A DNA stretch of 64,000 bases from a virus. The stretch covers positions 48,685 through 112,684 of the IMG/VR virus record IMGVR_UViG_3300036766_000644; one strand, given 5' to 3'. Shown here piece by piece: positions 43,349 to 44,758 of this stretch. Every line of letters begins with the position of its first letter. Position 1 is the stretch's first letter. Both the position numbers and the translations under genes were made by a program. The notes beneath the pieces were generated by a model that was given only the letters and a program-made list of their open reading frames with translations, had not been told where the DNA came from and did no database searches.

Positions 43349-43788
43349 CTCCGGCCGATTGGTCAGTGCTCCAGGACACCATCTACTCGTTGTTCCCCCC
43401 GGGAGACGCCAGCGACTTCATGAAGTGGATGCGGAACCCTGAGGCGGTGAGGACGCTCATCTCGATCACCGGGGCGCACGAGGAGACAGGAGACTTTTAC
43501 AACACCATATGCGTTAGCTGCCAGGCTCCTGTGGACCACCAACCGCACCACAGTAACTGCGCGGTTGTGACGGCGTGGGTCGCTCTGGGTGATGCCAGGG
43601 CTGACGCCGAGATCCGTGATGCGTATGCTGCGGCGCTGCGTAGCGAGAAGAGTCGGCGCTCCGCGGCCAAGGGAGTGGCGACTCGACGGGCCCGTGGCGC
43701 TGAGACTCAACGGGATAAGCTCAGGGACTACAACTCGATGATCGGGGCCATCCGTAACGCGCGAAAGGTGCGCTTCGATGGCCCTTGA
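43345..43788 (+). CDS. hypothetical protein (147 aa)
   Basis: GTGA-coupled. Confidence 0.5.
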   Translation: MTPADWSVLQDTIYSLFPPGDASDFMKWMRNPEAVRTLISITGAHEETGDFYNTICVSCQAPVDHQPHHSNCAVVTAWVALGDARADAEIRDAYAAALRSEKSRRSAAKGVATRRARGAETQRDKLRDYNSMIGAIRNARKVRFDGP

Positions 43789-44023
43789 TACCCCGCTTTA
43801 CGAAGTATGCCGTGGCTGTGGCGGGGCGTTGAAGGGGCTCTCTTCGATGATGGATGGGCTCTGCGACGCTCCTGCCAAACTGGATGAGCGCGACGTCTCG
43901 TGCTACGCGAAAATGGCTGAGTGGCTCTACAAGAACAAGGAAGACGGCGTGCTGGCCGCGGTGCTCATCCAAGACGCGGACCTTGTGCTGATCGATGAAT
44001 GGCTTGAGTCGAGGACGCCGTGA
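43778..44023 (+). CDS. paralog 1 of a 4-member tandem zinc-ribbon family (81 aa)
   Basis: CRGCGG…DGLCD…C and a C-terminal IDEWLESRTP. Confidence 0.55.
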   Translation: MALDTPLYEVCRGCGGALKGLSSMMDGLCDAPAKLDERDVSCYAKMAEWLYKNKEDGVLAAVLIQDADLVLIDEWLESRTP

Positions 44024-44292
44024 GCATCCAGCGTGGATGGGTTTCGAAGTATCGACAAGTGGTGTACCGTGGCTGTAAGCGATGCGGGCGAAAACTACGA
44101 TTCAAGTACGAGTGCGAAGACGGACTTTGCGGCGGGGATTACTCAACGCCAGCGTGCTTCAACCGATGGGTGAAGTGGACCATGACTACCCGTGGCGCGG
44201 TCCCATTTCCAGAAACTAAACCTGGGCTGGACTACGCAACATCTGATCGCGCGGTGTCCATCGATATGTGGCTCGAGGCGGGGGCGCCGTGA
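44020..44292 (+). CDS. paralog 2 of the tandem zinc-ribbon family (90 aa)
   Basis: CKRCGRKL…DGLCGG. C-terminal SIDMWLEAGAP. GTGA overlap. Confidence 0.55.
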   Translation: MSIQRGWVSKYRQVVYRGCKRCGRKLRFKYECEDGLCGGDYSTPACFNRWVKWTMTTRGAVPFPETKPGLDYATSDRAVSIDMWLEAGAP

Positions 44293-44528
44293 TAACGCAC
44301 TGTAAGCGGTGCGGGCTCAAGCTCAAGGCGGTGTGCGACACGCAAGACGGGCTGTGCAGCATGCTGCTTGATGCTTCAGAGCCTGACACTACTTGCTACA
44401 CACGATGGCTCAACTGGGTAGAGAGCCACAACATGGCGCATGTCCTCGTTCCGACTCCCTCGGACAACTACGACACGGCGGAACGCCTGGTAGCAATCGA
44501 TCTGTGGCTAGAGCTGGGGACACCATGA
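44289..44528 (+). CDS. paralog 3 of the tandem zinc-ribbon family (79 aa)
   Basis: CKRCGLKL…DGLCS. C-terminal AIDLWLELGTP. GTGA overlap. Confidence 0.55.
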   Translation: MITHCKRCGLKLKAVCDTQDGLCSMLLDASEPDTTCYTRWLNWVESHNMAHVLVPTPSDNYDTAERLVAIDLWLELGTP

Positions 44529-44758
44529 GGTGGGCTCACTGCCGTGGATGCGGATCTGAGCTGGGGCTACAAAAAGCGGATCAGCTCGACGGGCTCTGTA
44601 GCATCCAGATCTCAAATGGCTGCTTCACGAAGGCGAACAGGTGGGCCATTCGTCAGAAGCTCATCAAGGCCTACGGGGCGTACACAGACATTGAAGTAGC
44701 CACGGCTGCCCCGTGGCAAGTAGCCATCGACATGTGGCTCGAGGCGGGGAAGCCGTGA
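44525..44758 (+). CDS. paralog 4 of the tandem zinc-ribbon family (77 aa)
   Basis: CRGCGSEL…DGLCS. C-terminal AIDMWLEAGKP. ATGA overlap. Confidence 0.55.
   Translation: MRWAHCRGCGSELGLQKADQLDGLCSIQISNGCFTKANRWAIRQKLIKAYGAYTDIEVATAAPWQVAIDMWLEAGKP

Follow-up and report, generated by a model that had tools for sequence, protein, structure and literature searches.

A cassette array of four small cysteine-rich genes from a rare, previously undescribed protein family in an uncultivated phage

The 64,000-nucleotide stretch analyzed here (the window; positions 48,685 to 112,684 of IMG/VR virus record IMGVR_UViG_3300036766_000644) is part of an uncultivated phage of ~190 kb, and carries four overlapping plus-strand open reading frames (ORFs) that encode members of a cysteine-rich protein family of ~80 residues, which we label Z. 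Z is a rare family without an earlier description, and its four copies in the window are genuine and anciently diverged. The locus they form is a cassette array: close relatives differ in it by the gain and loss of whole genes, and the breakpoints lie at the junction where a conserved C-terminal motif, the tail, runs into the overlapping stop and start codons of adjoining genes. Z is of a familiar kind: an ORFan family of uncharacterized small accessory genes in a hypervariable stretch of a phage genome.

The four copies matched one another significantly by BLASTP in each of the six pairings (E 1e-5 to 2e-18, 25-42% identity), and the four-copy alignment has 18 invariant columns, made up of the four cysteines, the glycine after CxxC, a DGLC motif, the tryptophan of helix 2 and the tail pattern V.ID.WLE...P. 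A profile built from the four copies matched 15 proteins among 5.8 billion, and 60 further cluster representatives (E<=1e-3) among 1.84 billion proteins. The matches are all unannotated and 52-175 aa long; one of them, P0038, is a low-complexity false positive. The earlier note on this DNA had proposed a shared family, as opposed to a similarity of composition, and the pairwise matches, the invariant columns and the 60 profile matches bear it out. A degenerate DNA pattern for IDxWLEAGxP, run over the sequence collections, returned 1 IMG/VR, 32 GTDB and 65 metagenome loci; filtering with the family hidden Markov model (HMM) left six of the 65 metagenome loci as true members and none of the IMG/VR (0/1) or GTDB (0/32) loci.

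Searches of Pfam, PHROGs, NCBIfam and PADLOC gave no family match for the four Z proteins or for 67 members, apart from weak contacts with DUF6011: three of the 67 aligned members touched this Pfam family through the CxxCG region (best E 0.006), and the four window copies had no Pfam match at E<=1. A tblastn search of 50,697 cultured phage records found no Z homologue (chance matches only), and blastn of the array region matched nothing related. The only match in a sequence-profile search of the PDB was a weak one to an RxLR effector repeat, 'IDAWLDAGKS' (E 0.69), which was taken as chance and dismissed as a relative of Z. Nothing relevant was found in a literature search for the Z family or DUF6011.

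The sole multi-domain member is P0022, a metagenome protein of 171 aa in which two Z domains lie head-to-tail in one ORF, with non-canonical tails (WLALSDEE... and WLMYLAERKS). It could be a true fusion or the product of a frameshift across a 4-nt overlap; all of its homologues aligned to one half only. A second search, with a 67-sequence profile, found no fusion of Z to any known domain.

The family consensus reads (Y)THCRGCG - x~10 - DGLC - x1-33 - C[FY]xR[FW]xxW - ~30 - WxVAIDxWLEAGAP, with a cysteine spacing of CxxC-x13-22-C-x1-33-C. Across 67 proteins C5, C8 and W73 are invariant, and C23, C36, D71 and L74 are conserved in at least 90%. The third cysteine is replaced by histidine in P0016, P0061 and the L054 copy, which is the substitution expected of a metal ligand and therefore counts for a metal site; four conserved ligand positions that tolerate Cys/His interchange are what characterizes a generic Cys4 metal-binding domain. 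The CxxC knuckle, the cysteine of DGLC (sometimes histidine) and the cysteine at the start of helix 2 supply the probable ligands of a single structural metal ion, for which zinc is the best candidate. The earlier note had called these proteins zinc ribbons, a name that is not established, since Z has a single CxxC knuckle and ligands three and four are lone cysteines 1-33 residues apart; no likeness to solved zinc-ribbon domains was found, and the models are mainly helical.

Structure prediction, which the earlier note had suggested, gave a confident model of a mainly helical domain (AF2; pLDDT 88.5 and pTM 0.79 for the Z gene 3 product). Apart from one beta-bridge pair, which lies at the knuckle, the models consist of three or four helices, the last of which is the tail, the most confident segment of the monomer models. 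The models thus make what had been described as a C-terminal tail one of the core helices of the domain rather than a peptide hanging free at the C-terminus. Each Z copy would be one compact domain, in which helix 2 and the C-terminal helix (..VAIDxWLExGxP) would form the hydrophobic core. Variable parts are the Cys3-Cys4 loop and the linker between helices 2 and 3, which differ in both sequence and length, and the surface charge, which covers a wide range. No structural neighbor of the Z models was found in the PDB or BFVD.

The internal junctions of the four genes (Table 1) are 4-nt overlaps (GTGA, GTGA and ATGA), and Shine-Dalgarno-like G-rich runs (GAGGA, GAGG/GGGGG and GGGGA) lie 4-10 nt before the Z starts, within the last codons of the preceding gene. 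The overlaps suggest coupled translation, in keeping with the "translationally coupled" of the earlier note. The array ends a long co-directional run (operon) of small genes close to replication genes. The earlier reading of a paralogous small-protein family in a phage is supported.

At the DNA level the four tails are a family of 35-nt direct repeats, D1, whose copies are 74-91% identical, and it is fair to ask whether the tail is conserved through nucleotide-level needs (a recombination site, or the start codon and ribosome-binding site that the next gene uses) and not through protein function. In the tail, E-x-G codons yield runs of GAGG or GGGG 4-10 nt ahead of the start that follows, and it is at the tail that indels break. 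An [AG]TGA ending is found in 12 of 17 distinct family genes; in most cases, then, the tail carries both the start codon of the following gene and its ribosome-binding region, even where that gene is unrelated. Synonymous positions of the tail codons, however, vary freely across the 17 distinct genes, differing among copies and homologues alike, and the motif stays intact in P0006, P0007 and P0015, where further residues follow it. Free synonymous variation, together with a motif that persists ahead of extra residues, points to selection on the tail as protein rather than DNA. The invariance of W73 and near-invariance of D71 and L74 in 67 proteins, and the confident helix in which AF2 puts the tail, also speak against nucleotide-level needs as the sole cause of its conservation, an explanation that is largely refuted and that we regard as extremely improbable.

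Copy number, which the earlier note had proposed to compare, varies among related genomes (4, 3, 2 and 2). The close relatives compared (L001, L002 and L094) have flanking DNA that is 74-95% identical to that of the window, and in all three the array still lies between the upstream 147-aa gene and the convergent gene downstream. Each indel in the four-way alignment comprises exactly one or two genes and starts directly after a CC[G/A]TGA junction, following D1. A gene-sized indel of 269 nt at Z gene 2 sets the window apart from L001 and L002. Z gene 4 is missing from L001 and L094, and its orthologue in L002 is 57% identical and has a C-terminal extension. In L094, position 693-723 aligns to both tail copy 2 and tail copy 4. 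Gene-sized indels between close relatives at a repeated short sequence are the mark of boundary-motif shuffling, and recombination between tail copies would add, remove or swap cassettes. No promoter- or terminator-like sites were found between the Z genes.

The paralogues are too diverged for dN/dS, which was therefore computed on orthologues. Z gene 2 and its L094 counterpart are 98.5% identical in nucleotide sequence, with 5 synonymous and 0 nonsynonymous codon differences, and the flanks are 77-92% identical. Z gene 3 orthologues are 87-91% identical, with dN/dS of 0.06-0.19; the orthologues of neighboring genes give 0.10-0.45. Selection on Z orthologues is purifying, and the diversifying selection supposed in the earlier note left no sign in these comparisons of three or four sequences, a number that gives no power to site tests. 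In a neighbor-joining tree (~80 columns, weak) each window copy groups with homologues from other contigs and not with its array neighbors, which suggests that the array is old or was assembled, with turnover by whole-gene gain and loss, and argues against a recent local duplication burst. "Locally expanded", the earlier wording, thus holds only loosely: the genes are tandem paralogues, but the tree places them with copies on other contigs.

The phage backbones that carry Z are unrelated and range in size from ~40 kb to ~190 kb. The distant carriers have no gene in common with the window beyond Z, except for a second small cysteine protein in L003. Every carrier is a phage-like contig in which Z belongs to a long series of small genes that overlap, and it is single-copy in most (L052, L054, L104, L106, L108 and L110), with two copies in L003 and L004. 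Its neighbors include Prim-Pol/VapE; an ERF recombinase, a methylase and an HNH protein in L106 (a 42-kb contig); a DEAD/ResIII helicase in L052; a 2H-phosphoesterase in L104 (a 179-kb contig); and an endonuclease V-type protein and DUF3310 in L108. No partner gene is conserved next to Z across the carriers. Of the 67 members, 42 have an isoelectric point (pI) below 6, the median being 5.6, and net charge over the family spans -12.5 to +7.8.

From this context, our tentative choice, to which we give somewhat less than an even chance, is that Z proteins are independent small protein-binding accessory factors of the host takeover or anti-defense kind, which the earlier note had also named. A scaffold with two variable loops, variable charge, patchy and mobile spread, dispensability among close relatives and purifying selection on each orthologue are best fitted by such factors, and the low pI of most members and their range of charge make protein binding likelier than nucleic-acid binding. 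Each Z protein would act alone as a small modulator that binds a host or competitor protein, the conserved core serving as scaffold and the variable loops providing specificity. Several points weigh against this explanation. Nothing in the way of homology, structural neighbor, fusion partner or conserved neighbor points to a target or activity, and PADLOC, PHROG and NCBIfam gave no match of Z to known anti-defense or defense families. Coupled translation and the fusion P0022 could mean that the copies work together, and the metal site and the zinc in it are putative, with an Fe-S cluster as an alternative.

Phage late-gene activators classically take the form of Cys4 proteins of 70-90 aa, a format that Z fits. 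Its members might accordingly be small zinc-finger nucleic-acid-binding regulators of the phage's own program, like P2 Ogr/P4 Delta or Mu Com, that activate transcription or translation, possibly together with the multisubunit RNA polymerase that the window itself encodes; the two-copy member P0022 would then parallel P4 Delta, a fused Ogr dimer. This seems unlikely to us, given that Z has no Pfam match to Ogr_Delta or any DNA-binding family, that most members are acidic, that array composition differs between close relatives, which would be unusual for essential regulators, and that the family is found on phage backbones of very different size with nothing else in common. If instead the paralogues were subunits of one hetero-oligomer, with coupled translation fixing the stoichiometry and the C-terminal helix as common interface, the 4-nt overlap at all internal junctions and the natural two-domain fusion would be accounted for. 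Many other phages, however, carry a single copy, array membership varies, and the tail helix is already the most confident segment in models of the monomer. The same 4-nt overlaps also link Z to unrelated downstream genes, which makes coupling common to these operons in general, and we consider the hetero-oligomer quite unlikely.

The four conserved cysteines in a small helical protein would also suit an Fe-S cluster, the proteins then being redox-responsive factors like the WhiB-type proteins of actinophages, and Cys/His ligand variation is seen in some Fe-S sites as well. The CxxCG knuckle is typical of zinc sites, however, the spacing of the Z cysteines differs from the WhiB C-xn-C-x2-C-x5-C, and neither a Pfam Whib match nor a GVWGG turn was found; a cluster is thus very improbable. 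A more ambitious combination of these elements, which we hold to be distinctly improbable, is that Z represents a previously unseen metal-stabilized fold used as a plug-in scaffold by uncultivated phages. Its invariant C-terminal helix would dock on one common host hub, the loops of the paralogues would redirect or block different partners, and the DNA coding for the helix would double as a joint for recombination and translational coupling, making the array a self-shuffling library of host and defense inhibitors.

Should the accessory-factor explanation be true, Z would be one more phage small-effector family, well delimited, confidently folded and rare. The natural array variants with 4, 3 or 2 copies could be used for target finding, and a coding tail that doubles as a cassette-exchange junction is a tidy example of how accessory genes can be shuffled without dedicated boundary elements. 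The present evidence opens no long-standing question. On a practical level, standard gene callers overlooked two of the four Z genes in public copies of the contig.

Table 1. Features of the Z array and its flanking genes; positions are those of the window.
Feature	Position	Strand	Remarks
Z gene 1	43778..44023	+	81 aa ORF
Z gene 2	44020..44292	+	90 aa ORF; uncalled in public annotation
Z gene 3	44289..44528	+	79 aa ORF; uncalled in public annotation
Z gene 4	44525..44758	+	77 aa ORF
Tail/junction repeat copy 1	43989..44023	+	Repeat family D1; 74% identical to reference copy
Tail/junction repeat copy 2	44258..44292	+	Repeat family D1
Tail/junction repeat copy 3	44494..44528	+	Repeat family D1
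Tail/junction repeat copy 4	44724..44758	+	91% identical to copy 2; no plus-strand gene after it
Upstream 147-aa gene (context only)	43345..43788	+	Before the array in every close relative; dN/dS 0.33-0.45
Convergent Ala-rich 365-aa gene (context only)	44760..45857	-	Array boundary in all relatives; dN/dS 0.19-0.39

The upstream 147-aa gene had no family match in library searches, and the convergent 365-aa gene had no PHROG, NCBIfam or PADLOC match. A plus-strand ORF at 44713-45177 was considered as a fifth coupled gene and dropped, as it runs antisense to a gene that is conserved and evolves under purifying selection. A different 147-aa protein (42196-42639, +) was considered as a hidden fifth paralogue because of its vaguely similar tail, but the Z HMM does not detect it and its cysteine architecture differs. 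We treat it as part of a separate, second small cysteine family (CxC...CxxC, then (I/V)xVxDxLxxLG), whose other representative is at 7599-7952 of L003 (31% identity, E 5e-10). Several unrelated paired-Cys mini-proteins (41437-41709, 41706-41915, 41912-42199 and 43148-43348, +) lie upstream in the same operon. L094 has no counterpart to 41430-42637 and 43139-43346 of the window, and the lack of several of these mini-proteins there makes the whole stretch 41437-43348 cassette-like. A few kb from the Z genes, at 48451-48732 (+; L005 14674-14955), is a small Phage_P22_Y8K6 (PF27050) protein; a weak PF27050 match also lies two genes from the Z homologue of the unrelated contig L108 (7467-7682), which may be a coincidence.

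The window sequence also turns up in contigs of JGI (188,569 bp) and Logan (identical over 20 kb). Its genes include those for a large terminase, a family A DNA polymerase, an SNF2 helicase, a Prim-Pol, a VapE helicase and a class II ribonucleotide reductase, and the nearest cultured terminases, those of Salmonella phage Arash and Vibrio phage D181, are only ~29% identical. The multisubunit RNA polymerase has beta and beta' fused in one 1603-aa ORF (6925-11736, -), with beta domains Rpb2_3 and Rpb2_6, beta' domains Rpb1_1 and Rpb1_2, and an inserted inorganic-pyrophosphatase-like domain (PF18823, E 7e-31, residues 587-706); Rpb1_5 is on a separate 599-aa ORF (3452-5251, -). A phage reverse transcriptase (37160-38356, +) has as its top match a retron type XIII reverse transcriptase (PADLOC, E 5e-44), and NCBIfam retron models score far under their cut-offs. 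The next ORF (38353-39624, +), which is Cys-rich and 423 aa long, had no matches, and L001 keeps both as a pair. No template/variable repeat pair was found between 33 and 48 kb in the window, so the enzyme is not an obvious diversity-generating retroelement, and the idea that the Z genes are targets of such an element was rejected on this ground and because the nearby reverse transcriptase is retron-like.

Among known systems, P2 Ogr and P4 Delta (Ogr_Delta) resemble Z as phage proteins of ~70-90 aa with four cysteines, and P4 Delta, a covalent tandem of two Ogr-type domains, recalls the two-domain member P0022. There is no sequence match, however (no Pfam match at E<=1 for the four copies and none at E<=0.1 for the 67 members), and Ogr has the spacing C-x2-C-x22-C-x4-C where Z has CxxC-x13-22-C-x1-33-C. 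Nor does Ogr have the conserved C-terminal IDxWLEAGxP helix, and Z proteins are mostly acidic. A further contrast is that Ogr, without which late transcription fails, is present as one copy, while the number of Z copies changes from one close relative to another. DUF6011, the only family touched, likewise consists of uncharacterized small Cys-containing proteins, but Z scores far under its membership level and none of the four window copies match it. WhiB-like Fe-S proteins differ from Z in their Pfam family and cysteine pattern, and in a G[VI]WGG turn that Z lacks.

The early host-takeover and anti-defense proteins of model phages include lambda Ral, Gam and Kil, T7 Gp2 and Ocr, and those of anti-CRISPR loci. 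Z resembles them in size, in its runs of small genes by replication and recombination modules, in its patchy spread and in its horizontal movement between unrelated phages. It differs in having no homology to any of them and no Aca-type helix-turn-helix neighbor, and in that Z orthologues are conserved rather than fast-evolving.

The behavior of the array is closest to that of the hyperplastic regions of T4-type phages, which are shuffled via short conserved boundary motifs known as PeSLs (PMC2839356, PMC4122927). In both, small accessory genes are gained, lost and replaced, with breakpoints at a short repeat on gene boundaries. The PeSL, however, is a promoter with a stem-loop terminator, whereas the Z repeat is coding sequence, the 3' end of each gene together with the stop/start overlap that leads into the next.
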